Part shown: positions 742-23,331 of the stretch, piece by piece
Position numbering within the stretch: the first letter of the stretch is position 1
Layout of the letters: each line of letters begins with the position of its first letter
NCBI GenBank assembly: GCA_963806535.1
Contig: CAWDYC010000007.1
Coordinates: 96,001-160,000, forward strand
Source: Candidatus Bathyarchaeota archaeon
Lineage (GTDB): Archaea; Thermoproteota; Bathyarchaeia; Bathyarchaeales; Bathycorpusculaceae
Direction: 5' to 3'
Length of the DNA: 64,000 nt
Notes under the pieces: model-generated
The model's database searches: none
What the model was told of the DNA's origin: nothing
What the model saw: the letters and a program-made list of their open reading frames with translations, nothing else
Program-made: the position numbers and the translations under genes

Positions 742-3700
742 CTAAGTCCCAGTCCCGTTTGTGCTCCAGTAGGTATTCCATCCATCTATGAAAAGCGCAA
801 TATCCTGGGAGTTTATCTTACCGTCGCCATTGAGATCGCAAATTGGATTAACTGTTCCGTTATTGTAGTAATGAATGTAAGCGTCAAATATGATAACGGC
901 GTCGTCAAAGCCGACTGAACCATCATGATTGAAATCGATTGTTGGAATCATTGGATTTAAGTTGCTGTTGACTGTGAGTTGAGCATTACCTGTTATTCCG
1001 TTAGATGTTGCAGTCACTGTCCAAATGCCGGAGTTTGACGCGGTGTATGCGTTTCCTGTCCAACTGCCACCGGCTGACAGGTTTGCAAGCCAGTTCACGT
1101 TGTTGGTTATATCCCATGTATTACCATTTAAATCTGAAGCATTCGCAGTAAATGATTGACTTGTTCCTGCTTCAATGGTTGAAGAAGTGGGAGTAATAGA
1201 AATTGTGTGTATTTGTCCGTGAGTAACTGTTAAAAAGGCGAGATCCGACAAACCGTTAAGAGAAGCAGTAATTGTCCATGTTCCTGCTTTGGCAGAGGTG
1301 TAAATGTTGCTGGACCAAGATCCTCCTGCGTTTGGATCAACGGTCCAAACAATAGTTGGTGTGATATCCCATGAGTTGCCAAATGAATCTGTTGCAAGAG
1401 CGGTTAATGACTGAGTAGAACCTGATTCAAATGATTGTGTTTTTGGCAATACGGAAATGCTGCTTGCTGAAGCGTGACCTACAATTACTGGAGCGATTGC
1501 TAATAATCCACCGACCATAGCGGTAATTGTCCATGTTCCAACTTTGGCGGCTGTATATGTATTAGCGTTCCATGAGCCTGCAGCGCCTTGGCTTGAGCTC
1601 CAACTTGCAGAATTAGAAACATCCCAAGTGTTACCATAACTGTCAGTTGCTGAAGCGGAGTAAACTTCGTTTGATCCTGCCATAAGCGTAATATTATATG
1701 GAGCAACTTGAATACTCGTTGCTGTTCCATGGTTTACCGTCAAATAAACGGATTTTGATATATTGTTGAATGTTCCAGTGATGTTCCAGACGCCTGAAAA
1801 TTCTGAAGTATATACATTTCCTAATAGAGTTCCACCGGCGCTTGAATCGATAGCCCAAATAGTTGAGCTAGTAACATCCCATGTATTGCCATTGGCGTCG
1901 CTTGCGGTGGCAGTGAAAGCTTGGGAAGAACCGGCAATAACAGATCCCGAGGAAGATCCTACTGTTATGCTTACTTCAGAACTGTGATTTACGATTACTG
2001 AGGTACTGCTTGATAATCCTGAATAAGTTCCTGTTACAGTCCAATCTCCTGCTGTATAGGAAGTGTATATATTGTTGCTCCATGTGCCAGATGCACCTGT
2101 ATCAATAGACCAACTTGTTGAGCTTGTTACGTCCCAGGTGTTTCCGCTTGAGTCAGAAGCTTTGGCAATAAAAGCTTGATTAAAACCAGCTATAATGATT
2201 GTTGAATCTGGACTTATAGTAAGGCTAATTGGAGATCCGTGATTAATTGCTACTGAAGCTGAATCTGACAAACTTCCTAAGGTAGCAGTAACTTGATAGT
2301 TGCCGGCATTTGCAGAATTATAGATGTTATTATTCCATGTGCCGTCAGCTCCAGAACTTATTGCCCAGTTTACTGAACCGCTTATATCCCATGAATTTTG
2401 ATAATTATCTGAGGCTAAAGCGGTGTATGATTCGGCAGATCCAGCAGTTATTGTTGCTGTTTTCGGCGATATAGTTAAGCCTGTTGCTTGTGCGTGATCC
2501 ACGGTTAAATAAGCGTAATCAGTGCAACCTAAATAAAGCCCTGAAACAGTCCAGCTTCCTGATGTTGAAGATGTATATTGATTAGCATTCCAATAGCCTC
2601 CTGCATTTTGTGATATTGACCATTGCGTTAAAGTGGTAACTGGCCACTGGTTACTGTAGATATCCGACGCTAGGGCTGAGTATACTTGATTGTTGCCAGC
2701 CACGATTTCGTTGTGATTTGGGCTTATTGCTAAGCTGACTGGTGATGCATGAGTTACTGTTAGCTGAGCTGTATCAGACAAACCTAAGCTTATGGCGGTA
2801 GCGTACCAAGTTCCTGCTATGGCAGAACTATATACATCATCTGACAAAGAACCACCTGCTTGTGAATCAATAAAAAATGTTGCCGAAGCTGTTGAGTCCC
2901 AACTATTTCCGTAAGAATCAAATGCTGTCGTGGTAAAAGTTTGTTGTGAACCAGCAACTATGTTGGGTGTTTTTGGGTCAACTTGAATGTGCGTTGCAAT
3001 TCCATGAATTATGCTTAGAGAAGCGGTGTCGGAGTAGCTCCCACATGTACCAGAAATAATCCATGTGCCTACTTTGCCACCATTATAAGTATTGCCGTTC
3101 CATGTTCCACCAGCTCCAGAATCTATTGTAAAAACAGTCGAGCTGGTAACATCCCATGTATTGCCAAAGCTATCACCTGCTAAAGCTGCAAAAGTATTTG
3201 GTGAACCAGCAGACAAACTGGATATTTTTGGAGATAACGTTAGGCTGGTTTGTGAACCATGAGTTATCGTTAAAGAGGCTGTTCCAGACAAGCTTGAGTA
3301 TTGACCTGTAATAATCCAGGTTCCGGCTTTAGCTGATGAATATATATTTCCGCTCCATGAACCGCCAGCGCTTGAATCAACACCCCAACTTGTTGAATCC
3401 GTAATGCTCCACGAATTTCCGTAATTATCTATTGCATTGCTTGCGAAAGTTATTGATGATCCCGCTGTAGCCAAATTTGTGTTTGTAAGCACAACAATTC
3501 TTGCCGGTAATGCATGGTTAACAGTTAGTGAGGAGGTATCTGATCTTCCTAAATACGTAGCAGTTACGGTAAAAATGCCCGCTTTGCTAGAAATGTACTG
3601 ATTTCCTATCCAGGTACCATCTGCACCAGAACTAATACTCCAAGTAATTAGACTCGTAACATCCCAAATATTACCGTAAACATCAGCCGCCAGAACCGTA

Positions 3701-4977
3701 AAAGTTCTGGAGTCGCCAGCGGTTAGAGTTGCTGTTTTAGGAGAAATTGATAAACTGGAAATAGGACCGTAATCAACGCTTATTGATGCTGTGTCAGAGC
3801 ATCCACCGATTGAAGCTGTGACGGCCCATGTGCCATATTTAGCTGACTTGTAAGTATGGCCATTCCAAGATCCTTCAGCGCCAGAACTAATACTCCATTT
3901 GGCAGCACTAGAGACATCCCAACTATTACCATAAGCATCAGAAGCCGTGGCCGTAAAAGTCAAACTCTGTCCAGCAATTTCAGCCGAGTTTTTTGGGGAA
4001 ATTAATATGCTAGCTGCCGCGGCAGGCGTAACTGTTAGTGAGGCTGTGTCTGAAAAAGTGCCTAATGAAGCTGTTATAGTCCATGTGTTAGCTTTCGCCG
4101 AAGTATAAGTATTACCGTTCCAGGATCCACCAGCACCAGAACTAATACGCCAGGTAATTAGACTGGTAACATCCCAATTGTTGCCATAACTGTCAAATGC
4201 ATTAACTGTAAAAGATTTCGAAGCACCAGCTGTCAAAGTTGCTGTTTTAGGAGATATTACTATACTGGTTGTCAAACCATGGTTTACTGTCAAAGAAGCT
4301 GAGTCAGTAAAACCTAAATAGGTGCCTGTTACCGTCCAAGTTCCAGTTTGAGAAGAGGTATAAACGTTTGCTGACCAGGAGCCCCCGGCACCAGTTGTTA
4401 TGCTCCAACTTGAGATTGTTGATACATCCCACGAGTTGCCATAGTAGTCTTTCGCTGTAGCTGTGTAGGCTTGATTACTACGTGTGTTTACAGTCGCTGT
4501 TTTTGGAGCTATTTGGATTTGTGTCGCAGATGCATGATTAACCGAGATTGAACTTGTTGTCGCAGAAACTGCTCCATCGGTTACAGTAATGGTTTGCGAG
4601 CCTGAAGTCACCAAGTTAAATCCACAGAAAGTATGAGCCCCTTTATCGTGACCGGGAGTAAAATGGTATTCGCACTGAGCTGAGTAAGGCAGAGTCGCCT
4701 TAGAATCGGTCGATAAGAAGTAGACATATCCGTTATAATTAGTTACAATTTTCCCGTTAGCGTTATAGGCCGTTATTGTTATGCAGCCGAAGCTTTTTCC
4801 GGCGACGACTGAAGCAGGAAAACCTGTTATTGTAAAGTGGTCAGGAGTGTGTTTAGCCTCGCTGTTAAGTACTTGTGGTTTAGAGACCATAATTTCTGAA
4901 CTGCCGATACTTGAAATCAATATTATGAGCGTCAGCGCAATAGCCAGCGCTACATTTCCAATAGCAAGCCTTCTCAT
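742..4977 (-). CDS. Giant secreted Ig-like repeat protein (14 x 85 aa) with C-terminal dockerin
   Basis: Signal peptide from MRRLAIG (ATG 4977; ORF track starts at 4998), one distinct Ig-like domain, 14 Big_2-like repeats, then the paired EF-hand dockerin DFNHDGSVGFDD...CDLNGDGKINSQD. Confidence 0.85.
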   Translation of the reverse strand: MRRLAIGNVALAIALTLIILISSIGSSEIMVSKPQVLNSEAKHTPDHFTITGFPASVVAGKSFGCITITAYNANGKIVTNYNGYVYFLSTDSKATLPYSAQCEYHFTPGHDKGAHTFCGFNLVTSGSQTITVTDGAVSATTSSISVNHASATQIQIAPKTATVNTRSNQAYTATAKDYYGNSWDVSTISSWSITTGAGGSWSANVYTSSQTGTWTVTGTYLGFTDSASLTVNHGLTTSIVISPKTATLTAGASKSFTVNAFDSYGNNWDVTSLITWRISSGAGGSWNGNTYTSAKANTWTITASLGTFSDTASLTVTPAAAASILISPKNSAEIAGQSLTFTATASDAYGNSWDVSSAAKWSISSGAEGSWNGHTYKSAKYGTWAVTASIGGCSDTASISVDYGPISSLSISPKTATLTAGDSRTFTVLAADVYGNIWDVTSLITWSISSGADGTWIGNQYISSKAGIFTVTATYLGRSDTSSLTVNHALPARIVVLTNTNLATAGSSITFASNAIDNYGNSWSITDSTSWGVDSSAGGSWSGNIYSSAKAGTWIITGQYSSLSGTASLTITHGSQTSLTLSPKISSLSAGSPNTFAALAGDSFGNTWDVTSSTVFTIDSGAGGTWNGNTYNGGKVGTWIISGTCGSYSDTASLSIIHGIATHIQVDPKTPNIVAGSQQTFTTTAFDSYGNSWDSTASATFFIDSQAGGSLSDDVYSSAIAGTWYATAISLGLSDTAQLTVTHASPVSLAISPNHNEIVAGNNQVYSALASDIYSNQWPVTTLTQWSISQNAGGYWNANQYTSSTSGSWTVSGLYLGCTDYAYLTVDHAQATGLTISPKTATITAGSAESYTALASDNYQNSWDISGSVNWAISSGADGTWNNNIYNSANAGNYQVTATLGSLSDSASVAINHGSPISLTISPDSTIIIAGFNQAFIAKASDSSGNTWDVTSSTSWSIDTGASGTWSNNIYTSYTAGDWTVTGTYSGLSSSTSVIVNHSSEVSITVGSSSGSVIAGSSQAFTATASDANGNTWDVTSSTIWAIDSSAGGTLLGNVYTSEFSGVWNITGTFNNISKSVYLTVNHGTATSIQVAPYNITLMAGSNEVYSASATDSYGNTWDVSNSASWSSSQGAAGSWNANTYTAAKVGTWTITAMVGGLLAIAPVIVGHASASSISVLPKTQSFESGSTQSLTALATDSFGNSWDITPTIVWTVDPNAGGSWSSNIYTSAKAGTWTITASLNGLSDLAFLTVTHGQIHTISITPTSSTIEAGTSQSFTANASDLNGNTWDITNNVNWLANLSAGGSWTGNAYTASNSGIWTVTATSNGITGNAQLTVNSNLNPMIPTIDFNHDGSVGFDDAVIIFDAYIHYYNNGTVNPICDLNGDGKINSQDIALFIDGWNTYWSTNGTGT
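967..4536 (-). repeat. Intragenic tandem repeat, 14 x 255 bp
   Basis: Each unit reads Hxxxxx(I/L)xxxP...AG....FTA.A.D.YGN.WDVT....W......GG.W..N.Y.S...G.W.(V/I)T..........LTV. The 14 units span exactly 3570 bp. Confidence 0.9.
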
Positions 4978-5121
4978 GTTTAGCCTTTCTCCAAGCAAGT
5001 TGGCTGGTGAACAATCTATTTACCACTTCTCCAAATAGAATCAATAGAGCTAAAGCTAATTTATTTATCAATAGATTTTCATTAGACAATTGAAAAAAAT
5101 ATGTTTATTGAATCTTGTTTA

Positions 5122-6498
5122 TTAAGGAAGTATTTGGAAGTTAACAATTGTTTCTGGGGCTAATGCGGTTTGATTTGAGTTTAACAAACAGATATATAAT
5201 GTCGCTTGACCAGTGAAAGCGGTCGAGGGGACAGAAAGAGTTAGATCAACTACGGTAAAGTTTTGCATTTGCAAAGTGTTTGTAAACCTATAAGAGCCTA
5301 TAGGGGTATTTGCTTGGTCAAATACAGTTATGTCTAGTTCAGAAGTTGGAGCGGAAAACAATCCATTATTTATTGTCAATTCGATTGGAAAAGCTTCTGA
5401 TCTGTGAACGCTTGAAGGGATTTGAATGTTCTCAACGTTACTCAAATAGTTAAAAGAAAAAGTTGTTGAATTACTCACGGTTCCTTGGGCAATACTTAAA
5501 GAAGCAGTTATTGACCAAGTGCCAAATACAATTTGAGTTGCATTGGGGTCTGGTGAAGGTAACCCATATTCAATTTGCGCAATACCACTTTGGTTTGTTG
5601 GAGCAACTTGAGTGGCTATCACGGAACCGTTTGTATTCTGAATTGAAAATAAAACGCTCTGATTGGAAAAGACTTGATTTTGATAGGTTACTAACGCGTA
5701 TATTTTAATCAGGTCTCGGGGGCCATACGTTGCCATCGATCCAGCGGCGGGTATACCTCCTTTGTTTTTGAAAACAGTTATTGTTGCATTTTGTAGCGGA
5801 GTTGAGTTGGGCGTTGGAGAAGGTGATGTACTGGGAGAAGGAGTTGGTGTGCTTTGAGATGTTGATGAAATAGTAACTGTTGCACTATTACAGGCAACGC
5901 TTAGCCCATTATCAGTAGGATTTTGGGCTTCACTGTAATTTGCATATACGCTAGCGTCTCCAATTGTTATAGGGCTAGTTCCAAAGTTTGTAATATTAAA
6001 TGTCAATGTTGATATTACTCCTGACGAAGCACGAGCTACTGCGTCTGTTTGAATAGCTTCCGTCAAGCCACCCATAATTGATCCCCCTAAGTTATCCCAG
6101 AGCGATTTTGTGTTGCCTAGGAATGCTACAGGGCCATTCTTCGTATTATTGGCTAGAAATGGTCCTTCTTGGACTTGTATAAGCTGTATTACGCTTGAAT
6201 TCCAGGTTACTGTAGGTATAGTCCAGCTCCAAATGCTTGGCACGTTATCGATTCTAACATCGATTTTGAAAGTGGTGTTAATTGGGGTAGGATTGGAACC
6301 AATTGTTATTTGCGAATTATTCGTGGTTCCTGAAAGAACTGCACTCATAGAAGTGGGAGGAGAACTAGCTAAACTTGAGCTTACTATCGTAAATATCGTT
6401 AAGGCGAGTGATATTGTCATTAGCGACACGATTAGTTTCTTAGCCAGCTTCATTTTGCATGTTTTCCTCAATAGTTTTAAGGGATAAGTTATTTTCAA
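5122..6498 (-). CDS. Secreted cohesin protein (1 cohesin, S/T/P linker, two Ig/MG2-like domains)
   Basis: Cohesin motifs IDVRIDNV..IWSW....WNSSVIQLIQVQEGPFL...SGVISTLTFNITNFGTSPITI. No C-terminal anchor. Alternative ATG at 6453. Confidence 0.8.
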   Translation of the reverse strand: MKITYPLKLLRKTCKMKLAKKLIVSLMTISLALTIFTIVSSSLASSPPTSMSAVLSGTTNNSQITIGSNPTPINTTFKIDVRIDNVPSIWSWTIPTVTWNSSVIQLIQVQEGPFLANNTKNGPVAFLGNTKSLWDNLGGSIMGGLTEAIQTDAVARASSGVISTLTFNITNFGTSPITIGDASVYANYSEAQNPTDNGLSVACNSATVTISSTSQSTPTPSPSTSPSPTPNSTPLQNATITVFKNKGGIPAAGSMATYGPRDLIKIYALVTYQNQVFSNQSVLFSIQNTNGSVIATQVAPTNQSGIAQIEYGLPSPDPNATQIVFGTWSITASLSIAQGTVSNSTTFSFNYLSNVENIQIPSSVHRSEAFPIELTINNGLFSAPTSELDITVFDQANTPIGSYRFTNTLQMQNFTVVDLTLSVPSTAFTGQATLYICLLNSNQTALAPETIVNFQILP

Positions 6499-8606
6499 GT
6501 TTTTATCTGGAAGTTAGAAGTTGATTCTGGACATAATGGCACTCCTCCGGCTGTGGGGAGATTTGTCATAACATTGACCCGAGTTGTCGCTGTTCCCACG
6601 AAAGCCCATGAAGGTATTGTTACAGTTATTGTAGAGCTTACTAATCCTCCCGAACCTGAATTAATCGTTGTTTTAGCAAAAGCCACAGGAACTTCTTGAT
6701 CATCACAAATGGTAACAGTTAGCAGTGCAGACATGTTGGCGGTTGCCTGAAGATTAATCGTTATTTGTATGGACTGTGATCTCTGCACACTGGCCGGTGT
6801 TTGAATTCCAGTGATACTTATTATGTTAATTAGGTAGTTGAATTTGAAATGTAGTGTATCTGTAACCACTACTTGTGAAATGTCAACTGACGCCACAATT
6901 GACCAATTTCCAAATAGAGATTGTTGATTAGTGTCTGGCCATGGAAGTCGGAATTCCCAATTTGCATATCCGGTTGCATTTGACAATGCTGAAGTCAGAC
7001 TAACAACTGTACCATTTGGATCCATGACGTCAAAGGCCACCAGTTTACCGACAACGGGGGCATTATTGTAAGTAACAAGGGCATATACTTTTACAAGCTC
7101 TTGAGGACCATAAGGACCGCTGTCAACATTTTGTCCTACTCCGCCTTTGTCAGTAAAAACATCAATTGATGCATTTTGAAGAGTACTTGATGGCACTATT
7201 TGTATCCAAGCATTTGTTGTTGAGGTATTGGAGTAGCTTGACGAGGGAACTGATTTTAAATCAGGGGCAGTAACGATCAAAGTTATTTTAAGGGTTGTTG
7301 GAGCTGATACAATAAAAGAAACGGCTTTACCGCTGTAGGATCCAAACAGTGACATGTTAGAATATTGTACTAACCAAGCATAATTTGTAATGTCACAGGT
7401 CATTCCGTCCCAACCAGCAGTTGAAGCACTTCCATCTAAAAGGATAGGGGCACCTACGGAAAAGGTGGTTCCGTTTGCGGGATTGAAATTAGCCACTGGA
7501 TTGGTTGGATTCGTTGGAGTAGGAGTTGGTGTAGGAGATGAGGAAGGAGTTGGCGTAGGAGTTGGGCTTCCTGAGGGTAAAACTGAAATTAATGCGCTAT
7601 TGCAGGTTGCACTGCTGCCAATGTCGCTGCTGCTCGAGTATACTGTAAAGCTGCTAATTGTCAGTGGGGTTGTTCCGTAACCTGTTACGTTAAATGTTAA
7701 CGTTGCAAGTACCCCCGCGGTGCCAACCGCGTGTACATTAGATCTAAGTGCTTCACTTAAGCCTCCCAAAATTGAACCGCCAGTATTGTCCCACAATTGA
7801 GAACTATCTCCTATGAAAGATGTCCCACCTCCCGTGCCAAGAAACGGTCCTTCTGAAACGCTTGTTAACTGAAGGATTGAAGCATTCCAATTTACGTTAT
7901 CCAATGTCCAACCCCAAAGATTAGCAACATTATCGACTCTAACATCAATGGATATAGAGGAGCCCATTGGATCGGGACTGGGACCTACCGTAATGCTTAG
8001 AGTGCTCGTAGTTCCCGATTTAACAGCACTTGCAACGGCACTCGAAGCAGCGCTGAAAGCCATAGTTGGTTCCGAATAACTGAAAGCAGCGTTTGCTACT
8101 GTTGCAGGTATCAGAGGATTGGAAGGTCCGGAGCCTTGGATTGGTGCGAGCAATTGAACATTAGTTAGTGTTAGCTGGGTTGATCCAAAATTAATTATTT
8201 GGAAGAGAAAGATAGCCAAGTCGCCGGAACCTGAAACATTGCCTTGATTTGTTAGAATGTCGTTTATATTTTGAATTACACCTGCGCTGTTGTCTATTGG
8301 AGAGGAGGTAACTGACGTTTGTCCAGCGGTTCTAAGAAAAGAGCCTTCACTTGAATTCATTAATTGAAGAACCGAAGGATCCCATGATAAACCTAAACTC
8401 CAACCACAAAGACCATTTACGTTGGAAACATAAGCCGTCACAGCAAAGGTTGCCCCTATTCCAAACGATTGACCAGAAATTACCGGCGGATCTAAACTAA
8501 CAGAGGTAGATTCAGAGCCATAAATGCCTCTTGAGAAAAGTAATAACGAAGTAAAGATGATTGCGACAACGAACGCGCAAGTTATTTTTTTAGTTTTAAT
8601 TTTCAA
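6495..8606 (-). CDS. Secreted scaffoldin-like protein (2 cohesins, PT linker, PKD-like domain, Ig/MG2-like pair)
   Basis: Two W(D/N)..(V/I)LQL....EG.FL cohesin motifs, a PTPTP linker, PKD-like PVANF...LDGSAS....ITNYAW, then a YGPQELVKVYALVTYN domain. Confidence 0.85.
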   Translation of the reverse strand: MKIKTKKITCAFVVAIIFTSLLLFSRGIYGSESTSVSLDPPVISGQSFGIGATFAVTAYVSNVNGLCGWSLGLSWDPSVLQLMNSSEGSFLRTAGQTSVTSSPIDNSAGVIQNINDILTNQGNVSGSGDLAIFLFQIINFGSTQLTLTNVQLLAPIQGSGPSNPLIPATVANAAFSYSEPTMAFSAASSAVASAVKSGTTSTLSITVGPSPDPMGSSISIDVRVDNVANLWGWTLDNVNWNASILQLTSVSEGPFLGTGGGTSFIGDSSQLWDNTGGSILGGLSEALRSNVHAVGTAGVLATLTFNVTGYGTTPLTISSFTVYSSSSDIGSSATCNSALISVLPSGSPTPTPTPSSSPTPTPTPTNPTNPVANFNPANGTTFSVGAPILLDGSASTAGWDGMTCDITNYAWLVQYSNMSLFGSYSGKAVSFIVSAPTTLKITLIVTAPDLKSVPSSSYSNTSTTNAWIQIVPSSTLQNASIDVFTDKGGVGQNVDSGPYGPQELVKVYALVTYNNAPVVGKLVAFDVMDPNGTVVSLTSALSNATGYANWEFRLPWPDTNQQSLFGNWSIVASVDISQVVVTDTLHFKFNYLINIISITGIQTPASVQRSQSIQITINLQATANMSALLTVTICDDQEVPVAFAKTTINSGSGGLVSSTITVTIPSWAFVGTATTRVNVMTNLPTAGGVPLCPESTSNFQIKT

Positions 8607-8797
8607 TATCCCCTTTTCCTCATTTGAATGATAATCGACCTAGGTTTAAGTCGATTCTTCCTTCCCTTGGTTTTAAGAAGACACATTGAGCCTTTTCTAT
8701 CTTTATTAAATAAACTATAGAGAAATCAATAGTTGGATTTCCAATAAATATATCAACCAATCATTAAGAAATAATGTTGTTAGGTGAAAGTTGGTTC

Positions 8798-9412: not shown

Positions 9413-9591
9413 AATTGTTCATGCTCTTCCTATTTGTTGTTTTTAAGATTAAGTTAGAAGATTATTTAGCCTGTTGATATTATTTTATATATAATATAGA
9501 CTCTTTAATCGTGGAAGGTTAATGCAGATTAAGATCGATTAGCCATAGAAAAAGGCCATTCAAGAAAATATTGGTTCTGAGGGTAAAAAAA

Positions 9592-12678: not shown

Positions 12679-12700
12679 TTTCTATCACTCAAACTTATTT

Positions 12701-14929: not shown

Positions 14930-14966
14930 TTTTGGTTTTCTCCTTTCATGTTTTCAGTTTGAATGT

Positions 14967-16436
14967 TTAGTGGGTTGGGTTGTAGTTTGTGAAGTAATAG
15001 ATGTAAGCTCCGCTCCATTGGATGAAGTCTGTTCCGTCAACCTTTCCGTTGGCATTAATGTCTGCCATTGGGTTGTAGACTGCTCCGCTGCTAAGGTAAT
15101 AGTGGATATATGCATCGCAGAAGTAAATGAAGTCTGTACCAGTAACTTTGCCGTCAGGAATATGTTGAGTTTGACCTGAGAGTGGTGTGTATGCAGCGAG
15201 GTTTGAGTCAATTGGGGTTCCTCCGCTTAAGTCTGCGCGGCTCATTTCGATGTAGTTTTGGTCATTTACGAAGTCGCTTGCTCCGCCATTGGTTGTGTTG
15301 TACATCTTCATGTATGCAATCCAAACGCCTGCTTCAAGAGTTGGTCCTGTTTTTGGAATTTGGTTTGGTATTACTTCCCATAGCCATCTCCATGCCTGGT
15401 ATTGGCCTGTTGCTGCTACACCTTTTATTCCAGAATAACCGTAGATTACATCAGCTTTTGTTGGTTGAACTGCTGGTCCCCATGTGAAGCCATTTGTACC
15501 CCATGAGCTGTTGTATTGGAAGGTTGATTGGGGTAGATGAGCAACATTGAATGCGATGTTTATCTGGTTCATGCTGAATGATAAGGCATATCCTAGTGAT
15601 ATGAAACCGATACAGTCGGATAATGAACCGATGTTGCCAGCCTGAACTGTGTCTTTAATATTGATGTTTTCGGTGCATGGAATGTATGATGCTGTTTTAG
15701 TAGGGTCGTAACCAGTGACAATGCCTGCTGAGTTCTTCAGGAGGAAGCTGTTTTGGTTTGGAGCTCCAAAGTAGTTGTTGAAGCAGTCTGCTGTTCCGGA
15801 TGTTGGGTCTCTCATTGCACGGCTAATTGGTTCTGATAATGCCGCTGTAGGAACGCCTGCGGTTGATAAGCCCCAGAAAGTGAAGAAGTCATTCCAAGTG
15901 CTAAATGTAGATGCTGTTTGGCCGAGTTCATTTTTTGGAGTGGCTGCAAAGATACTGCATACTTGCAATGTTGTCAGGTTCTGTGGGAACCAAGAAGCCA
16001 TATCAGGGCTAATGACAATAGAGACACTGTCAATTGCTACAGCCCATGTTTGCATGTTAACCATGTTTGCATCGCCGTATTCAGCGGAAGTGCTTTGTGG
16101 AGGTCTGGACATTTCGCCGATATCAGCTGAGCTGTTTGACAAGTTTGGAATTGCTGTTCCGCTACCGAGTCCCTCGAGAGAAATTGGGGAAGTAATATTA
16201 TTAGCGCCCCAAGAAGGATTCCCGCCGTTGAGATTATTCCACCAACTCGGGAATGAGCTTGCTTCTTCCGCCGCAATTGGCAGAACGGTGCTTGAGCCTT
16301 TAATTGTCAATGTAGCTGGATTAACTAAGTGTCCGCCATCAAATGTAGTGGTTGCGCTTGCTAAAGTTGCCGCTGCAGAAACTGCCATCATAACTATTAA
16401 TGCTAGGCATACTAAATACTTAATATTTTTATTCAA
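14967..16436 (-). CDS. pstS: Phosphate ABC transporter substrate-binding protein fused to a C-terminal dockerin
   Basis: PstS motifs IKGSSTVLP, GSGTAI, ADIGEMSR, VAIDSVSIV, RDPTSGT, IGFIS. C-terminal ADLSGG-insert-PDGKVTGTDF...ADINANGKVDGTDF. Signal peptide has no lipobox. Confidence 0.9.
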   Translation of the reverse strand: MNKNIKYLVCLALIVMMAVSAAATLASATTTFDGGHLVNPATLTIKGSSTVLPIAAEEASSFPSWWNNLNGGNPSWGANNITSPISLEGLGSGTAIPNLSNSSADIGEMSRPPQSTSAEYGDANMVNMQTWAVAIDSVSIVISPDMASWFPQNLTTLQVCSIFAATPKNELGQTASTFSTWNDFFTFWGLSTAGVPTAALSEPISRAMRDPTSGTADCFNNYFGAPNQNSFLLKNSAGIVTGYDPTKTASYIPCTENINIKDTVQAGNIGSLSDCIGFISLGYALSFSMNQINIAFNVAHLPQSTFQYNSSWGTNGFTWGPAVQPTKADVIYGYSGIKGVAATGQYQAWRWLWEVIPNQIPKTGPTLEAGVWIAYMKMYNTTNGGASDFVNDQNYIEMSRADLSGGTPIDSNLAAYTPLSGQTQHIPDGKVTGTDFIYFCDAYIHYYLSSGAVYNPMADINANGKVDGTDFIQWSGAYIYYFTNYNPTH

Positions 16437-16673
16437 TTTAGTTTTCTCCTTTCATTATCATGTGAACGATAAGTCGTTCAAAGTGAATATTGAAGCGGAG
16501 ACAATATCTAGCTTCCCGATGTAGTTTACGTTAGACAATTTAGCCTATAGGTTTTAGAAAGCCCTATGGAGAAAACATTACTCATCTACACTTACTATTA
16601 AGAATAAATAGAAAAGCGTTATCTTAGCTGCACTCACCTTTTGCGATTAGTTTGCGAGGAGAATAAGGGCTTT

Positions 16674-17561
16674 ATGAACACCAAAGTGTTTAAGGAAAAC
16701 TTGATTAAAGCCTTATTGTTTTTCTGTGCAATCTCCTCAATTGGCATAGTTTTTTTCATAATTTTCTTTTTGCTAAATAGCGGATACCCAGCAGTTATTC
16801 AGTGGTTTAGCCATGGATTTAATAGCATCCAAGGTTGCTATATTATTGAACTTACATACGACTCGCTATATCTTGCTCTGGGGGGAACATTATTAGCTAT
16901 TATTATTGGACTTCCTTGCGCAATTTATCTTGCAGAGTTCGCAGATAACAGATTAAGAAATATTGTAAAGCCTGCTCTAGAAGTACTTAATGGTTTTCCT
17001 TCAATTGTCATTGGAATAATAGGGTTTACAGTTTTATGCCTTAATTTGCCAAGTTTCGGATTTAGAGCTAGTTACAGCACTTTGGTTGGCTGGATTGTTC
17101 TCGGAATAATGTCATTGCCAGTAATAACAAGTGTTTCGGAAGATTCCTTAAGAGCTGTCCCTGATGAAATGAGAGAAGCCTCACTTGGACTGGGCGCCAC
17201 TAGGTGGCAAACAACCACTCAAGTATTGCTGTCAAGCGCATCGCCAGGAATCATTACAGCAATAGTATTAGGGTTTGCAAGCGCAATTGGAGAGACTATG
17301 GCAGTAATTTGGGTTATTGGCGGAGCTATGCCTCCACCACTTACACTAAATCCTTTAGTTCGAACTTACTCTATTACAGCTTGGATAGCGAACGTAGCAA
17401 CGGGGGATACATTCCAACCTGGCACTATTCTGTATCAACAGGTATTCGGTGCCGGAGTCATTCTTTTCGGAATTAACGCGTTTGTAGTTCTAGCTATTAG
17501 AAGGATATCATCAAGCAGATCTAAAACGAACTTGGGCATTGCGGAGAAATCTAAGAAATGA
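16674..17561 (+). CDS. pstC: Phosphate ABC transporter permease PstC
   Basis: AIYLAEFA, LEVLNGFPSIVIG, EAA loop EASLGLGATRWQT, AIGETMAV. ATG 16674 preferred. Confidence 0.92.
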   Translation: MNTKVFKENLIKALLFFCAISSIGIVFFIIFFLLNSGYPAVIQWFSHGFNSIQGCYIIELTYDSLYLALGGTLLAIIIGLPCAIYLAEFADNRLRNIVKPALEVLNGFPSIVIGIIGFTVLCLNLPSFGFRASYSTLVGWIVLGIMSLPVITSVSEDSLRAVPDEMREASLGLGATRWQTTTQVLLSSASPGIITAIVLGFASAIGETMAVIWVIGGAMPPPLTLNPLVRTYSITAWIANVATGDTFQPGTILYQQVFGAGVILFGINAFVVLAIRRISSSRSKTNLGIAEKSKK

Positions 17562-18973
17562 TTCTAAATCCGCAATTAAGAATTTCAAAGATTTCAAAAT
17601 ATTTAAAGAAAAGAGAAAAACCTTGTTTGATTAACGGATCTCTATTATTTGCGGCAGGCATAATTGTAACTATACCTGGGTTTGTTCACCTTTTCAACAG
17701 CTTACTAATTGATGGGTTTGCTCTAGCAACTTTCGATAAATTAATGGCTGATACTGCGGCTTCAGTACTCTTGATATTGCCAGCTCTAATAGTGTTTTCA
17801 ACAGGATACCTACTCTTGGAAGCCCAGTCTTTGGGTTGGAAACTTTCTATTGCAACTTGTCTAGTCGCCGTATTGTTAGGTGGCTTTGGTTTCTTGAGCG
17901 TTGAATTAGCGTTTATAATTGGAGTCTTAAGTGGCTTGGCAGCTGCGATGGAAATTAGATATCGGAAAAATAGAAATGATCAAAAAGATTCAGCGTTAAT
18001 AACAGAAAACGTTGTGAAATTAGGTCTAGCGTTGTCTGGGGCAATTTGCATAGTAACTCTTGCCGGCATGATTATTTATTTAGCTGTAAGAGGTTCATTG
18101 TTTTTCTCATGGAATTTTTTTGCTGGGCAAGATTTCGGTATGACTTACGCAGCAAAAGTTATTTCAGGTAAGGTGCCTGGCGGTTCGCTAAATTCAATTG
18201 GTGGATTCCTGCCGTACGCATTGGGTTCTTTACTCTTAGCGGGTCTTTGCGAATTGATAGCATTACCGATCGGTATTGGAGGAGCAATATACCTAGCTGA
18301 ATACGCTGGAAAAAATAGATTGACGTCTACAGTGCGTTACTTCATAGAAACGCTTGCGGGAATCCCCTCTATTGTCGTTGCGTTAGTAGGAGCTACCGTC
18401 TTTGTTGTTCTGTTTCAATGGGGTTATTGTGCTTGGGCAGCGGCTATATCATTATCTTTTATGATTTTGCCTTGGAATATTCGAATAGCAGAAGAAGCGA
18501 TTAGGTCAGTGCCAGCCGCATATAGGGAAGCTTCTTTTGCCTTAGGGGCTACAAAATGGCAGACTACGAGCAAGGCTGTGTTATTCGCCGCCTCACCTGG
18601 AATAATAACAGGCGTTCTCTTGGGTTTTGGTGAAGCCCTTGGTGAGACAATTGTTATTGCATTGACCGCCGGTTATGTGCCTATTTCCAATTTGAACGAG
18701 TACGGTCAGCCGATAATTCAAGGATGGACGGTTTTGCCGTCTGTAGCACATCTTTTTTCAACGCACACCACGATTACAACCCTTCCGATTTTTATTTGGC
18801 AAGCGCCAAAACTTTTGACTTTTGGTACGGGAGCCAGCGGCACAAGCTTGTCTTTCATGCAGTATGGATTAGCGTTGGCAGCTGGTTTTTATCTGGTAAT
18901 GATATACCTTGTAATCTGTGCTATTGCTCTTGTTGCGAGAAACTATTTAAGAAAAAGAATCCTAGGAAAGTAA
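17558..18973 (+). CDS. pstA: Phosphate ABC transporter permease PstA with extra N-terminal membrane domain
   Basis: AIYLAEYA, LAGIPSIV, EASFALGATKWQT, LGET. Overlaps pstC by 4 bp. Confidence 0.88.
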   Translation: MILNPQLRISKISKYLKKREKPCLINGSLLFAAGIIVTIPGFVHLFNSLLIDGFALATFDKLMADTAASVLLILPALIVFSTGYLLLEAQSLGWKLSIATCLVAVLLGGFGFLSVELAFIIGVLSGLAAAMEIRYRKNRNDQKDSALITENVVKLGLALSGAICIVTLAGMIIYLAVRGSLFFSWNFFAGQDFGMTYAAKVISGKVPGGSLNSIGGFLPYALGSLLLAGLCELIALPIGIGGAIYLAEYAGKNRLTSTVRYFIETLAGIPSIVVALVGATVFVVLFQWGYCAWAAAISLSFMILPWNIRIAEEAIRSVPAAYREASFALGATKWQTTSKAVLFAASPGIITGVLLGFGEALGETIVIALTAGYVPISNLNEYGQPIIQGWTVLPSVAHLFSTHTTITTLPIFIWQAPKLLTFGTGASGTSLSFMQYGLALAAGFYLVMIYLVICAIALVARNYLRKRILGK

Positions 18974-18977
18974 AAAC

Positions 18978-20450
18978 ATGAAACATCATAAAAGATCTTT
19001 TGCCAAGTTTATTGGAATAATAATGGTAGTCCTATTCTTAGTCTTACCATATACAATTCAATTTACTCATGCCCAAGCCAGTGGAAACGACAAATGGGCA
19101 TTAAACTTCCAAATTATGAATGCACAAAACGCCACTTCCACAACTTTCGCGCCTTTTGATGAAATCAAATTTAGCGCAAATGTAACCTATTCCAACGCCT
19201 CACAACCAGACATACTTGTAACCTTCAAGGTGCAAGGACCTACTGAATCACAAAACCCAATAAATATCACCCGAATAGCAACAACAAGCTCAAGTGGCGA
19301 AGCCGAATGTTCGTTCTTCTTACCAATAATGAACCAAAACAATAATTCAGTAACTGGGACTTGGCAAACCACCGCAACCATACGAACAAGCAACGGCACC
19401 ATTCAACAGAATCAGGATTTCACCACTCAATGGAAGCTGGAAATTAAGTCAATTAGCATAAAAAATTCTCAGAATCAAAACCAATCAATCTTTTACCCAG
19501 GAAATACCTGCGGTTTGCTGCTGGAATTGAAAAACAATGGACCATCACAAACGGCAAACATAACCCTTACCATGCAAGATTCAACAGGCAAGGTAATCAA
19601 CCAGACACAAATTGAAAATACTCAAGTGGAAACAACAACCACCAATTCAACACAAATCCAAAGCAGCATCCAAATACCTAACTCAGCGCTGACAGGTGAA
19701 TCTACAATTACAGGTGCAATTTACGCTGGAAACTACAATTATTCAATGTTGCCAGCAGGCGAAAATAAAACAGCATACTTTACAATTACTGGCAATATTG
19801 CACCTTCAACGACTGCTATTCCGACTCCCTCACCGACAGTGGAAAACGCGATGGGTCTATTCTCGTGGCTTCTAGTTGCAACAGGGCTATTTACATTCAC
19901 AGCATTATTTATGTTCTTGAAACGAAAAACCATTCCTGGAATTAACACTCAAATTCCAATAACTCCAGCGCCAACATCCAACCAAATCACAACAACCCTA
20001 CCGCCCCAACTATTAGAGCAACAACCGACTGGACAAACCGCATTGCTAGTTACACCAACAGCCAAAGTAGCCTCCGAAAAAACAGTCAATGCAACGCTGC
20101 CAATATCATTACCTAGCATTTATGAGACTCTAAATATGCCAACTTCAGAATCAACAAATCCTCAAGAACAAAAACAAATAATAATCAACCAGCTAACCAA
20201 AATTTCCAGCGCCAGCCAAAGAGTTCAAGCACTAGAATCTGCACTTAAAATAGAAAGAGAACAGCTCAGCAAAGAAATAGCAACTCTTACCAAAACACTT
20301 GAGGAACAAGAAAGAGCGGTCAAAAACTACTTCGACACAATAAAAGAAGAAATAGCAAAGCTAAACTCTAACCCAAACAGCGATAAGGAAGAAAATGCGC
20401 CTTCACAAAATAGGGTAAATCAACAACTTAAGAAAGATGGCGAGAATTAA
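18978..20450 (+). CDS. Single-pass membrane protein: extracellular Ig/MG2-like pair, TM helix, cytoplasmic P/T/Q linker and coiled coil
   Basis: Signal peptide; FAPFDEIKFSANVTYSN..GTWQTT domain; TM LFSWLLVATGLFTFTALFMFL + KRK; heptad-rich C-terminus. Confidence 0.8.
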   Translation: MKHHKRSFAKFIGIIMVVLFLVLPYTIQFTHAQASGNDKWALNFQIMNAQNATSTTFAPFDEIKFSANVTYSNASQPDILVTFKVQGPTESQNPINITRIATTSSSGEAECSFFLPIMNQNNNSVTGTWQTTATIRTSNGTIQQNQDFTTQWKLEIKSISIKNSQNQNQSIFYPGNTCGLLLELKNNGPSQTANITLTMQDSTGKVINQTQIENTQVETTTTNSTQIQSSIQIPNSALTGESTITGAIYAGNYNYSMLPAGENKTAYFTITGNIAPSTTAIPTPSPTVENAMGLFSWLLVATGLFTFTALFMFLKRKTIPGINTQIPITPAPTSNQITTTLPPQLLEQQPTGQTALLVTPTAKVASEKTVNATLPISLPSIYETLNMPTSESTNPQEQKQIIINQLTKISSASQRVQALESALKIEREQLSKEIATLTKTLEEQERAVKNYFDTIKEEIAKLNSNPNSDKEENAPSQNRVNQQLKKDGEN

Positions 20451-21224
20451 TTTATTTCAATTTCACATCTTTTTAATCCAAAATTAGCCTCTCAAAATCA
20501 CGCATCTTTATTTTAATAATATTTGGACAAACTGCTTAAGAAACTTATTCATAATCAACGTTTTAAATAAAAATGAGGAAAAGGGGCCATTACCAAAAAC
20601 AAAATTAATTTAGTGAAATGGCATTTTTCCTCATTTGCCTTCTCCAATTTCTCCAGTTGACAACTAAGCGAGCAATCGCTATTTGATACTTGTCAATATA
20701 GAAAATGAAATACAAATAGTCTTTGCGAAATCTATTTAGTGATTAGAATTCTAAAACCTAAATTAATATTAAAAAAAAATAATCAATCCAATTTCAAGTT
20801 ACGGCAATGTAGTATCTGTATAACTTATGTCTTTAAGACTTATTTGCGATGTTCTTTCCTCAAAATTGAGGCTAACCATAATTATGTCCAATTCATTGCC
20901 CTGTTCCAATTGCATACCGAATTAGATAAACCAAAAGAATTTCAAGAGCGCAGGATGAGAGACCACAAAAACGTACTTAGCGAAGTAAAATTCAGAGATC
21001 TAAGAAAGTGAAAAAGTGGAGAAAGTGCTTTCTCAGTTTACACTTTCTCGCCGAAGCAAGTGGCAGCAGAGAAAATGCTAAACAAGAAAGTCTTATGAAT
21101 GAATTTGCATTAATTTTATCTTTTTCAACTAAATAGTTTGCAAAAAAACTATAGCGCATCATTTTCTATGGCGAAAGGTGCTTTATATGTACATCTCCCC
21201 TGTGCAAACAGGAGAAAGGTGAAA

Positions 21225-23331
21225 ATGAAGAAAACAGGAAAGGTAATGGGAATTATAATAGTAATGTTGATCGCGTTTTTTAGTGCATCATTCATTGCTA
21301 CATCAAACGCCTCAGGAACAAGTCAAGTCACCATATACAATGGAGCAAATCAAGGCTCAATAGACTACAAAGTTGACAATGTACAATATTCAACACAGCA
21401 AACATTTACTTGGACACAAGGAAGCACACACACAATACAAGGAATCCAAACAACTATCGGAAACCAACTACAACTTTCACCAGCAGGAGACTTTTATGTA
21501 GATGGCAGCTATATTTATACTAACGTCTTAACATATACAGTTCCAACACATGATGGTTCAGTCTTCATAGATTCATCAACAAAATACGGAATTACTTTTA
21601 ACACCAACGGAATTGGATCAGTTACACCATCAGGATTCGGATGGTATGACCAAAGTTCAATAGACGCTGTTGCAACCCCAACAAATCCTAGCCAAGTCTT
21701 CACAGGATGGACATTTGATCCAACTTTTGAAATTGACGACCCTTTGAATCCAGCGCAGACTGTTTACATTAATGGATACGGAACAGTAACTGCAAACTTC
21801 TATCAACCACCTGCATTAACAAGTACAATAACAATAACGAATCACGCTGGAACAGGAAGTACAAACTACAAAGTTGACAATATACAATATTCAACGCCAC
21901 AAATATTCACATGGGAGCAAGGAAGCATTCACACTATTACTGGAGTCACAACTATAAACGGTCAAGAAAGATATGTTCCAACTTCAATAGACAGTGGAAT
22001 AACACAACCCACTACATATGTAACAGATCCATGCACTTACACTGTCCCAACATATGATGAACACATTTGGATAGCACCTACCACACAATACGCAGTAAAC
22101 TTTAACGTAAATGGACTTGGCACAGTAACCCCTTCAGGACAAAACTGGATTAATCCATGGGCAAACATCACGATTTCCGCCACACCAGCAGTTGGTCAAA
22201 GATTTACAGGTTGGACAGCTACAAGTGACTATGGAGACGTCTACTTCCTTGATGCATCTGCAGCATCAACAAATGTCTCAATAGGCGATCTTAACACAGT
22301 TATCACAGCGAACTTTGCACCAATGCCCACAAGTCAAATTACAATAAATAATAACCAAGTAACTTATCAAATTGATGGGAGCAACTATTACTCTTCAAAC
22401 GGTCAAGTCTTTAATTGGATTCAAGGAAGCACACACACAATAACAACATCTGAGAGCATTTTCGGTTTAACTATGAAATACACACCTACGGGATTTATTT
22501 CTCCAAGCATAGGCTCTGTAAGCGGAAATACTTTAACCTACACAGTTCCGACAACAAATGAAGCTGTAAATATTGCATCTAATGTAAGCTACTGGGTAAC
22601 TGTAAATGCCAACACAAGTGGTTCAGTATCTCCGTCAGGTTCAACATGGTATTCAAATGAGCAACGAGTTCCTATAACTGCAACTCCAAACACTGGTTAC
22701 ACAATTCGTGAATTGGGTAATAACACCAGATGACGACACAACAATTGACAGCTTAACATCTGCTTCTACAACTGCCACTATGGGCGGCCCATGTACAATA
22801 ACAGCTAATTTTGCCCAGGTTCCGTCAACACCAGTTCAAATTACTAATGTTCAAATTCCATCAATTGCAACTCAAACAGGCTTTATGATGCCAATAAATG
22901 TCACTCTAAATAATCCAGATTCAGTATCTGAAACCGCAAATGTTCAAATAAATGCTAACGGAACATCTGTGTTCAGCGACACAATTACATTAAGTGCAAC
23001 ACAAACCGAAACAGTCCCATGCTACTTTAACGCAAGCGTATTAAGCATAGGAAATTACACCTGGATAGCAACTATAACCACCACAAGTCTGTCAGGTACA
23101 CCATCAACATCAACAACTGGACAAATGGCAGTGACTTATTTAGGCGACATCAATGGAGACTTCAAAGTTGACGGCAAAGATTTTATTGCTTTTTGCGGCG
23201 CATATGTTCAATATTGGCAAGTCGGCGGTTCGCACCAAGTTGATCCTGCATCAGACTTCAATCATGACGGCAAAATAGACGGCACTGATTTTATCGCTTT
23301 CAACAGTGCATATGTCAGTTATTGGGAGTAA
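21225..23331 (+). CDS. Secreted repeat protein (3 x [beta domain + InlB-B/Flg_new-like]), CARDB-like domain and dockerin; frameshifted
   Basis: ORFs 21138..22733 and 22708..23331 join if one A at 22703-22704 is removed (GYT-FVNW). Dockerin GDINGDFKVDGKD...SDFNHDGKIDGTD. Confidence 0.8.

Follow-up and report, generated by a model that had tools for sequence, protein, structure and literature searches.

Cohesin and dockerin modules outside cellulosomes have been called enigmatic since their first archaeal sightings, and gene lists seldom reveal what they do. The locus described here raises the question in a particular form: why should phoU/pstB and pstS of a single pst operon be separated by ~20 kb of genes for cohesins and dockerins? 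It was found in a 64,000-nucleotide stretch of DNA (the window; G000:C7:96001-160000) from a Candidatus Bathyarchaeota genome, which comprises 2.95 Mb in 12 contigs and is 91.75% complete. At the head of the cluster is a gene for a PstS-like protein that ends in a dockerin. One operon thus unites a conserved client (PstS), permease, regulator, ATPase, membrane anchors and scaffolds, and it recurs in more than 20 genomes, which makes for a concrete and testable hypothesis. We judge it on balance probable that a second Pst importer has its binding protein tethered through the dockerin, with anchored cohesins serving as membrane stalks, free scaffolds adding sockets, and other dockerin proteins sharing the platform.

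A cohesin-dockerin cluster embedded in a pst operon

The original prediction, made from the sequence of the window, described a minus-strand run of at least 10 genes headed by PstS-dockerin and back-to-back with pstC-pstA. The open reading frames (ORFs) are as it described them: the run goes from 16436 to base 1 and is divergent from pstC and pstA, the identities of which are borne out by matches to TIGR02138, TIGR00974 and BPD_transp_1. The run also extends further, beyond the left edge of the window. Cohesins and dockerins were located with two local hidden Markov models (HMMs), one seeded with a single local cohesin and the other with a single local dockerin, both iterated over the 8247 genomic ORFs of at least 60 aa. 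The genes of the cluster and its immediate flank are as follows, Ig standing for immunoglobulin.

1..729, minus strand (whole gene G000:C7:94756-96729): 657-aa secreted protein, of which the N-terminal 243 aa lie in the window; (alpha/alpha)6-barrel, beta-sandwich region and C-terminal dockerin (local HMM E 3.6e-25)
742..4998, minus strand: Big-repeat dockerin protein, 1418 aa, secreted; ~14 Ig-like (Big) repeats (Big_15, Big_3) and a C-terminal dockerin
5122..6498, minus strand: scaffold; signal peptide, one cohesin (residues 65-182, E 8.9e-42), Pro/Ser/Thr linker and two-domain Ig-like tail module; weak MG2 match
6495..8606, minus strand: scaffold; two cohesins (43-150, 207-320) and tail module
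8798..9412, minus strand: short single-cohesin protein, 204 aa; Pfam Cohesin 31.9 bits; N-terminal hydrophobic segment only
9592..10467, minus strand: membrane-anchored cohesin; signal peptide, one cohesin, ~48-aa S/T/P/Q-rich linker, C-terminal transmembrane helix (261-279) and basic tail
10623..11747, minus strand: membrane-anchored cohesin; one cohesin (local HMM E 4.6e-32), PKD domain (PKD_4 5.4e-18), P/S/T linker and C-terminal transmembrane helix
11698..12678, minus strand: g8; secreted, two Ig-like domains and a C-terminal dockerin (Dockerin_1 28.8 bits)
12701..14929, minus strand: g9, two-cohesin scaffold; cohesins 55-185 and 227-337 and tail module; directly downstream of PstS-dockerin
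14967..16436, minus strand: PstS-dockerin; signal peptide, PstS-fold phosphate-binding domain and C-terminal dockerin
16641..17561, plus strand: pstC, divergent from pstS-dockerin; TIGR02138 186.1 bits, just below the cut-off of 196.45; BPD_transp_1
17558..18973, plus strand: pstA; TIGR00974 183.8 bits, residues 158-463
18978..20450, plus strand: type-I membrane protein, starting 5 nt after pstA; ectodomain homologous to the scaffold tail module, transmembrane helix 294-312 and cytoplasmic coiled-coil-like tail
21138..23331, plus strand: InlB-B-repeat dockerin protein, in ORFs 21138-22733 and 22708-23331; Flg_new_2 4.1e-17, Dockerin_1 25 bits

The ORF at 1-729 is open-ended at the window edge, and the rest of the gene, with its dockerin, lies to the left. 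Beyond this 657-aa gene come a short ORF, an AbrB-PhoU gene, pstB (C7:91991-92821; TIGR00972 381 bits, over the cut-off), three unrelated genes and then another dockerin protein gene (C7 88048-89328). The overall order is therefore pstB, AbrB-PhoU, cohesin/dockerin cluster, pstS-dockerin and divergent pstC-pstA. With phoU and pstB at the far left of the run, the cluster sits within a second pst operon.

The first, canonical operon is found elsewhere in the genome (G000:C4:227257-233428). A 361-aa ORF on the opposite strand lies upstream, followed by transmembrane-anchored pstS, pstC, pstA, pstB and phoU (PF12849 114.9 bits for PstS; 377.7 bits for pstB). Hence the organism has two Pst systems, and these differ in the tether of PstS: the C4 protein has an N-terminal transmembrane helix and a ~50-residue PT-rich linker, while the C7 protein has neither.

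The head gene encodes a PstS-fold protein with a dockerin

PstS-dockerin has a signal-peptide-like N-terminus, no other hydrophobic segment, and no transmembrane or lipobox-type anchor. It scores 35.7 bits against PF12849 (PBP_like_2; cut-off 27). A phmmer search of PDB sequences gave no match. We modelled the protein with AlphaFold2 (AF2) from 37 homologues, obtaining a predicted local distance difference test (pLDDT) value of 88.1. In the PDB, every Foldseek match of this model listed as far as rank 45 is a phosphate-binding or DING protein (4jwo ranking best, E 2.4e-14), in agreement with the proposed identity of the head gene. Template-modelling (TM) scores are 0.6-0.77 when normalised to the target and 0.38-0.46 when normalised to the query, and insertions lengthen the protein by ~100 residues relative to solved PstS proteins. 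Across the 37 homologues, G32-S33, G76-S77-G78, D90, S95 and S198-G199-T200 are invariant, with R96 and R194-D195 nearly so. These residues sit in segments that resemble the phosphate-binding motifs of PstS.

The dockerin at the C-terminus of this protein falls below the cut-offs of public models (Dockerin PF00404, 17.7 bits; NCBIfam dockerin_GC, 26.9 versus 29) and is recognised by the local dockerin HMM (E 5e-25). In the AF2 model it forms two C-terminal helices (418-432 and 453-470) in a block of pLDDT 89-95, as expected of a dockerin. A dockerin consists of two tandem ~22-residue segments, each with a loop of the form D-x-N-x-D-G-x-x-x-x-x-D followed by a helix. The genome encodes eight dockerin proteins, six of them within C7 88-119 kb and four in the window (742-4998, 11698-12678, 14967-16436 and 22708-23331), and both repeats, each an EF-hand-like Ca2+ loop plus helix, are visible in all eight. 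Compared with solved structures, a profile of the eight matches dockerins (best 4fl4, E 8e-08; also 2y3n_B and 3ul4_B).

The HMM check proposed with the original prediction (PF00963, PF00404 and PF12849) succeeded in part: PF12849 is found on PstS and some cohesins and dockerins exceed their cut-offs, but other modules, the PstS dockerin among them, fall short. For PF00404, the proteins over the cut-off are 11698-12678 (28.8 bits), 22708-23331 (25 bits) and C7 88048-89328 (30.3 bits); 742-4998 (20.7 bits) lies below it, as does PstS. The profile comparisons with solved cohesins and dockerins leave the modules as they were originally named.

We also modelled the PstS dockerin (residues 392-474, 37-row alignment) in complex with both cohesins of g9 (residues 38-350, 13-row alignment). 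The score was 0.01 against a mark of 0.32 with the fold of the partner uncertain, a result that weighs neither for nor against binding.

Membrane-anchored and free cohesin proteins

The local HMM finds eight cohesin modules in six window proteins (1, 2, 1, 1, 1 and 2 per protein), the same count as originally given, and only two full modules and one fragment in the rest of the genome (C3 and C4). All eight window modules are mutually homologous. PF00963 at its curated cut-off (24.1 bits) catches only part of them: 8798-9412 scores 31.9 bits, and 10623-11747 remains below the cut-off at 18.2-20.6 bits. A six-frame PF00963 scan of the genome yielded five matches, four of them over the cut-off. 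Against solved structures, a profile of the eight modules matches type-II cohesins (best 3l8q, E 2.5e-14; 19 cohesin chains at E <=1). No protein has more than two cohesins, and no carbohydrate-binding module (CBM) turned up on any cohesin protein in Pfam searches. In a tree of modules covering at least 90 HMM positions, cohesins group into orthologous types that persist across genomes.

Hydrophobic segments agree with the anchors previously proposed, namely two C-terminal (9592-10467 and 10623-11747), one possibly N-terminal (8798-9412) and three proteins with none. In the two C-terminally anchored proteins, the stalks that precede the transmembrane helix are similar to the linker of the C4 PstS in length (~50 residues) and composition. 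The 10623-11747 type carries a C-terminal transmembrane motif, GGSxFWLRK, that is kept in 12 of 12 orthologues examined. The N-terminal hydrophobic segment of 8798-9412 could be either a signal peptide or an N-anchor. Among 12 members of its clade from other loci, nine have a C-terminal hydrophobic segment with a basic tail (seven of these with 'PEFP' or 'PEYP' ahead of the segment) and three have no C-terminal segment.

A side observation concerns short cohesin proteins of related loci (L005, L008, L009, L012, L015 and L017-L020) and G000:C4:526664-527128, many of which have at their C-terminus PEFP or PEYP, then a hydrophobic helix and finally a tail of Lys/Arg, resembling archaeosortase sorting signals. 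One orthologue (L009:16720-17511) scores 20.3 bits against the PEFG-CTERM model TIGR04296 (cut-off 25); window proteins have no match to that model, and no place in the genome exceeds its cut-off. There is a single exosortase/archaeosortase-family gene in the genome (C7:288800-289585). With scores below threshold, archaeosortase anchoring of the short cohesin proteins was kept out of the mechanism proposed below.

The three remaining scaffolds (5122-6498, 6495-8606 and 12701-14929) show no hydrophobic segment beyond the signal peptide in a scan for such segments. Their tails, the ectodomain of 18978-20450 and part of g8 are homologous Ig-like modules with weak MG2/Big_1 matches; the tail of g9 is related to the 18978-20450 ectodomain (BLASTP E 3e-09) and that of 6495-8606 to the g8 protein (E 9e-08). 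These similarities make 18978-20450 a candidate membrane receptor for the anchorless scaffolds. The neighbouring gene pstA encodes a 471-aa protein with an N-terminal extension of ~150 aa that contains extra hydrophobic stretches, a feature kept in orthologues of 425-469 aa.

The locus is conserved, and PstS-dockerin tracks multiple cohesins

Searching 5.8 billion proteins with PstS-dockerin gave 87 clusters at E <=1e-5, with 35-100% identity and mostly 97-100% query coverage, and the local HMM finds a dockerin in 86 of the 87. We then scanned for related loci using one genome per species, which gave 19 loci on 17 contigs. Seventeen of these loci come from records titled Bathyarchaeia/Bathyarchaeota; two cluster-bearing contigs (L008 and L016) are in records titled Limnocylindrales bacterium and Acidoferrum sp., and are probably mis-binned.

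In the usual order, an 18978-type gene, pstA and pstC occupy one strand, and PstS-dockerin, the two-cohesin scaffold, g8-dockerin, an anchored cohesin and further cohesins the other. Counts over the 19 loci are 19 for pstC/pstA, 18 for cohesin, 17 for the 18978-type protein and 12 for g8; the sole locus without a cohesin overlaps a cohesin-bearing locus on the same contig. The scaffold g9 holds the same position in related loci, and 18978-type homologues adjoin pstA in 17 of the 19. One locus (L024) has the full order seen in the window genome, from pstB and AbrB-PhoU through the cluster to pstC-pstA, and two more (L016 and L026) include phoU and pstB at other positions. Minimal loci (L004 and L016) consist of PstS-dockerin and 2-3 cohesin proteins only.

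Some related loci show PstS-dockerin in unusual frames. In L019:5699-8212, PstS, its dockerin and two cohesins share a single 837-aa open frame, either a natural fusion or a lost stop, with a second, fragmented PstS copy downstream. In L006:8777-11311 and G468:C1:352945-354264, PstS-dockerin lies in open frames of ~844 aa with an N-terminal extension of ~400 residues.

Across 120 genomes of the genus, PstS-dockerin is present in 21 of the 24 genomes with at least three cohesin matches, in one of 36 with one or two, and in none of the 60 without (1/96 for the latter groups together). All 22 genomes with PstS-dockerin have a listed cohesin place on the same contig, ~10 kb or less from the PstS gene. 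We inspected the three exceptions. Between its cohesin genes and pstCA, the customary site, G425 encodes a PBP_like_2-dockerin protein that is more divergent, and phoU and pstB lie at the far end; in G456 the expected site holds fragments of PstS and of a dockerin, broken by frameshifts; and in G426 the contig stops before the expected position. At least 23 of the 24 multi-cohesin genomes therefore carry PstS-dockerin. Because related genomes are not independent, we report this co-occurrence as counts and not as a test. With linkage conserved in 19 loci and in 22 genomes of the genus, the survey suggested with the original prediction removes a lack of conserved linkage as a ground for rejecting it.

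Dockerins of one genome share a presumed contact segment

Positions 9-14 of each dockerin repeat lie in helix 1, the cohesin-contacting helix of solved dockerins. Within a genome, PstS, g8, the Big-repeat protein and other carriers have nearly the same segment in both repeats; from genome to genome it changes (DGTDFI here, NFADLQ in L010, NFNDIT in L019 and L020, and D(S/A)NDFF in L012-L014). Mean identity at these positions between PstS-type and other dockerins is 0.59 within the same genome (44 pairs) and 0.33 between genomes (735 pairs). None of 5000 permutations of genome labels reached that difference; within two sequence subgroups, 0 and 39 of 5000 did so. For this test, loci sharing a contig were treated as one (L022 with L007, L021 with L011), three dockerin fragments were assigned to the PstS type according to where they fell in the tree, and one inserted residue was removed from repeat 2 of two g8 dockerins.

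The genome-specific segment fits co-evolution of all dockerins with a common cohesin set. Gene conversion between dockerins would yield the same pattern, yet would also imply that the dockerins are kept interchangeable. In a tree of dockerins covering at least 40 positions, those of PstS form their own clade, joined solely by a dockerin-cohesin protein on C3.

Other dockerin cargo and neighbouring genes

Two more dockerin proteins had been placed in the run, and both are there (742-4998 and 11698-12678). The latter, g8, is, after PstS, the cluster's second conserved protein to bear a dockerin, and where it occurs in related loci it usually comes straight after the two-cohesin scaffold. The dockerin of 742-4998 scores 20.7 bits against Dockerin_1, rising to 33.5 bits once its in-frame neighbours are added (local HMM E 4.5e-26). 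Homologues with a dockerin are found in seven related loci, and the repeats suggest fibre- or adhesin-like cargo.

A fourth dockerin protein, predicted at 21-23 kb, was only partly as described: the dockerin is present (22708-23331), but a frame change separates it from the body of InlB-B repeats (21138-22733). The change falls near 22697-22708, not in a homopolymer; a relative in L006 (2291-3790) is a single ORF.

Two further dockerin proteins lie at or beyond the left edge. The AF2 model of the 657-aa protein (pLDDT 86.6) has as its best Foldseek matches sugar 2-epimerases and other (alpha/alpha)6 carbohydrate enzymes, at a weak E of 2.6e-05 and target-normalised TM scores of 0.44-0.48; an (alpha/alpha) toroid lead for it scored 0.75-0.76, too weak alone. 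Its family comprises 47 clusters, and the few source names among them are Bathyarchaeia. For C7 88048-89328 there is a CBM4_9/DUF4627 lead (score 0.90), which is a lead only. No homologue of the 657-aa protein was found within 10 kb in the 19 related loci, nor any of C7 88048-89328 in the flanks of related loci, so we class both as accessory.

Outside the cluster, two proteins on C3 each combine a cohesin with a dockerin in adaptor-like fashion (G000:C3:153708-156332 and G000:C3:220970-224092; L002 and L003). A PQQ-type beta-propeller and Big domains are found in one of them; the other contains a PKD domain and a PstS-clade dockerin (65% identical to that of PstS), followed by a cohesin. Further variable cargo is seen in another genome of the genus, G426 (L027:6544-7755), where a dockerin protein beside g8 bears a prenyltransferase/squalene-hopene-cyclase-like alpha-alpha toroid.

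Polyphosphate genes had been noted close by, and domain matches confirm them; they are listed here as context.

24112-24651: CYTH
25692-26294 and 26255-27826: PPK1, as an N-domain ORF and the remainder
27801-30143: CHAD-metallophosphoesterase-Ppx domain III
30128-31714: Ppx/GppA
31720-32637, minus strand: PPK2

PPK and/or CHAD homologues occur within 10 kb in seven of the 19 related loci. The two PPK1 ORFs overlap just past a run of eight T (~26247-26254), which may reflect an assembly indel error or a real frameshift; related loci have a single PPK of ~720 aa. Enolase also seems split, as the third such gene in the window: 33868-34671 contains Enolase_N but no more than the beginning of Enolase_C, and is followed by the overlapping ORF 34613-35182. 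Since apparent frameshifts split several genes in the window and in related loci from metagenome-assembled genomes, a few ORF boundaries may be assembly artefacts.

A proposed tether for the binding protein and competing explanations

From the domains, anchors and gene order we infer the following binding steps, role of the tail module and physiological benefit. PstS would be secreted via a cleavable signal peptide and, having no membrane anchor of its own, would plug its C-terminal dockerin into cohesins. Two of these, 9592-10467 and 10623-11747, would be held in the membrane by C-terminal transmembrane helices behind ~50-residue Pro/Ser/Thr-rich stalks, an arrangement that would mirror the N-terminal helix and PT-stalk of the canonical C4 PstS. 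The three anchorless scaffolds, with one or two cohesins each, would supply extra sockets. As the scaffolds and the pstCA-linked membrane protein have the Ig-like tail module in common, that protein may dock scaffolds next to the permease. Altogether, PstS would be kept at high local density within reach of PstCA. The same sockets could also carry variable cargo, namely the Ig-repeat fibre, the InlB-repeat protein, the small Ig-like protein, the (alpha/alpha)6 enzyme-like protein and the CBM-like protein.

A stronger version of this proposal is a 'phosphate antenna', in which a dedicated multivalent cohesin scaffold concentrates dockerin-tagged PstS at the cell surface and is physically coupled to PstCA through the pstA-linked membrane protein that shares the Ig-like tail module. 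We consider this possible but somewhat doubtful. If it were true, cohesin-dockerin coupling would be an integral, co-evolving part of an ABC (ATP-binding cassette) importer and would represent a third binding-protein tether besides lipid and transmembrane anchors. It would also be the first physiological role assigned to non-cellulosomal archaeal cohesin-dockerin pairs, and the remaining dockerin clients would attach the cell to phosphate-releasing particles.

Several observations weigh against the tether. The PstS-dockerin family (E <=1e-40) occurs in nine of 401 genomes in a class-wide sample that includes G000, and seven of the nine, G000 among them, belong to the same genus; the feature is lineage-restricted, mostly to one genus of soil/peat Bathyarchaeia. 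Even within that genus PstS-dockerin is patchy, being present in 22 of 120 genomes, with at least one cohesin in 60 of 120. Given this distribution, it is not essential for phosphate uptake in the group. PstS-dockerin scores 57 bits against the PstS equivalog model TIGR02136, far under the cut-off of 206.6, and its ligand is consequently a prediction from fold and operon. In PstS-clade dockerins, Ca2+ loop 1 is degenerate (QTQxIP instead of DxNxD), lacking acidic or amide residues at positions 1 and 3, and loop 2 is also degenerate in some genomes; for this reason binding might be weak, altered or independent of Ca. Part of the cargo is not evidently connected with phosphate, as in the case of the (alpha/alpha)6 fold and the CBM4_9-like lead. 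PstS on a soluble scaffold might be unable to reach PstCA. Finally, no shared promoter k-mer joins the transcription units of the cluster to each other or to the canonical pst operon. Here, we looked for enriched 7-mers and 8-mers in 10 upstream regions (the pstS/pstC spacer, the pstB/phoU spacer, and the regions upstream of four cluster genes, the InlB-repeat gene, C7 88048-89328, C4 pstS and PPK) with 724 intergenic regions as background. Over 1346 tests, p for the best 7-mer was ~1e-4, short of significance, and no 8-mer occurred in four or more regions.

The most serious competitor is a general surface-display or adhesion system, for attachment in biofilms or to particles or polymers, in which PstS is one passenger. 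Linkage to pst would then arise because pstS-dockerin must stay near pstCA and the cohesin genes near their most conserved client. Five of the six clustered dockerin carriers are not phosphate proteins (Big-repeat fibre, InlB-B repeats, Ig-like, (alpha/alpha)6 barrel, CBM-like lead), the accessory cargo varies among loci, two cohesin-plus-dockerin proteins are encoded elsewhere, on C3, and 35 of the 36 genus genomes (among 120) with one or two cohesins have no PstS-dockerin. However, multi-cohesin clusters are almost never without PstS-dockerin (21/24 at first pass, at least 23/24 after inspection). In the DNA of L004 and L016 that was examined, no dockerin cargo other than PstS is seen, save for a cohesin-dockerin adaptor in L016. 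The tail-module protein, moreover, starts 5 nt after pstA, and its homologues keep this neighbour in nearly all loci. On these grounds we regard a general display system as unlikely.

It is far less likely still that the PstS-like module is not a transport receptor at all, and serves instead to store bound phosphate, or to sense or adhere to surfaces or polymers that carry phosphate (minerals, nucleic acids, phospholipids). Its high divergence from canonical PstS (TIGR02136), its ~100 extra residues, its low query-normalised TM scores, and the presence of a canonical PstSCAB in the same genome would be compatible with such a role. Yet PstS-dockerin is the only binding-protein gene beside a complete pstC/pstA/pstB set, it keeps this arrangement in 19 of 19 loci, and the residues invariant in 37 homologues fall in segments like the presumed phosphate-binding motifs.

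A true archaeal cellulosome, i.e. a polysaccharide-degrading multi-enzyme complex, is the least probable of the explanations. The cohesin profile is nearest to type-II scaffoldin cohesins of cellulolytic clostridia, and there are one dockerin protein with the (alpha/alpha)6 fold of carbohydrate enzymes, one CBM4_9-like lead (0.90) and the alpha-alpha toroid dockerin protein of G426, but no glycoside hydrolase, polysaccharide lyase or carbohydrate esterase Pfam family is found on any of the genome's eight dockerin proteins, both carbohydrate-like cargo genes lie outside the conserved core, and the fold match is weak (TM 0.44-0.48, E ~1e-05). We rejected it as the main reading since the cluster shows neither of two defining features, namely wall-degrading enzymes as the main clients and a many-cohesin primary scaffoldin with a cellulose-binding module.

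We therefore return to the dockerin as tether of a Pst binding protein. The 'modular phosphate-scavenging surface structure' of the original prediction holds as regards the modules, the PstS fold and the linkage; it fits less well with the part of the cargo that looks carbohydrate- rather than phosphate-related. If the tether is real, it would offer a modular, non-covalent way to hold and multiply the binding protein of an ABC transporter, would bear on how uncultured soil/peat Bathyarchaeia compete for scarce phosphate, and would be of interest for surface-display engineering. The dockerin contact motifs that co-vary across genomes are also a natural data set for cohesin-dockerin specificity.

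Comparison with known systems

The original prediction knew of no described system like this one. Searching the literature on dockerins and cohesins in Bathyarchaeia, on non-cellulosomal archaeal systems, and on PstS and other binding proteins, we found no title or abstract that describes PstS-dockerin or this operon; there is, nevertheless, a precedent for dockerin-tagged ABC binding proteins in ANME (anaerobic methanotrophic) archaea (PMC9012536). The modules, and the idea of tagging binding proteins with dockerins, are already known. What appears new is the operon, which is conserved, builds a system of cohesin scaffolds into a pst transporter, and has a dockerin clade and membrane anchors of its own.

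In ANME archaea, dockerins are commonly borne by ABC-transporter substrate-binding proteins of the NikA/OppA and TroA types (Chadwick et al. 2022, PMC9012536). The same paper describes scaffoldin-like proteins with up to five cohesins, and leaves their function open while proposing attachment of functional proteins to the cell exterior. That system resembles the one in Bathyarchaeia in being archaeal and non-cellulolytic, with dockerins on ABC binding proteins and multi-cohesin scaffoldin-like proteins. It differs in that the binding proteins named in section 32 of the paper are of the NikA/OppA and TroA types and not PstS, although S4 Data of PMC9012536 may list further types. In addition, the genes are described there as variable lists and not as a conserved operon with permease genes, and the hosts belong to a different phylum.

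An older example of archaeal cohesins and dockerins unconnected with cellulose degradation is that of Archaeoglobus fulgidus (Bayer 1999; Haimovitz 2008; both as cited in PMC9012536), and binding of archaeal pairs has been verified experimentally, again as cited there. As summarised in that source, the genes of A. fulgidus are isolated; here, at least eight cohesins and at least six dockerins share a conserved operon with an identifiable client.

Bacterial cellulosomes (Acetivibrio/Clostridium; 3l8q, 2b59, 4fl4, 2y3n) use the same module families, combine anchoring and free scaffolds, have cohesins shared by several dockerin clients, and contain Pro/Thr-rich linkers. The conserved client here, in contrast, is the binding protein of a transporter and not a glycoside hydrolase, and each protein has at most two cohesins. 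Anchoring is by C-terminal transmembrane helices in place of SLH domains or sortase. The dockerins are also of a distinct subtype, with the helix motif F-x-x-F-x-x-A-Y-I-x-Y-Y and, in the PstS clade, a degenerate first Ca loop.

With canonical PstSCAB-PhoU systems the locus shares pstC, pstA, pstB and phoU-like genes, as well as a PstS-fold protein with conserved residues resembling those of the binding pocket. A dockerin, however, replaces the lipid or transmembrane anchor, ~20 kb of scaffold genes separate pstS from phoU/pstB, PstA has an extra N-terminal region, and a membrane protein with the tail module follows pstA.

In archaea and Gram-positive bacteria, binding proteins are tethered as lipoproteins or by a transmembrane helix. 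Such membrane-tethered substrate-binding proteins, the C4 PstS included, face the same problem of staying near the permease without an outer membrane, and the stalk has a similar length (~50 PT-rich residues). The tether proposed here would be non-covalent and modular, through dockerin and cohesin, and as such could be multivalent, exchangeable and shared with other clients.

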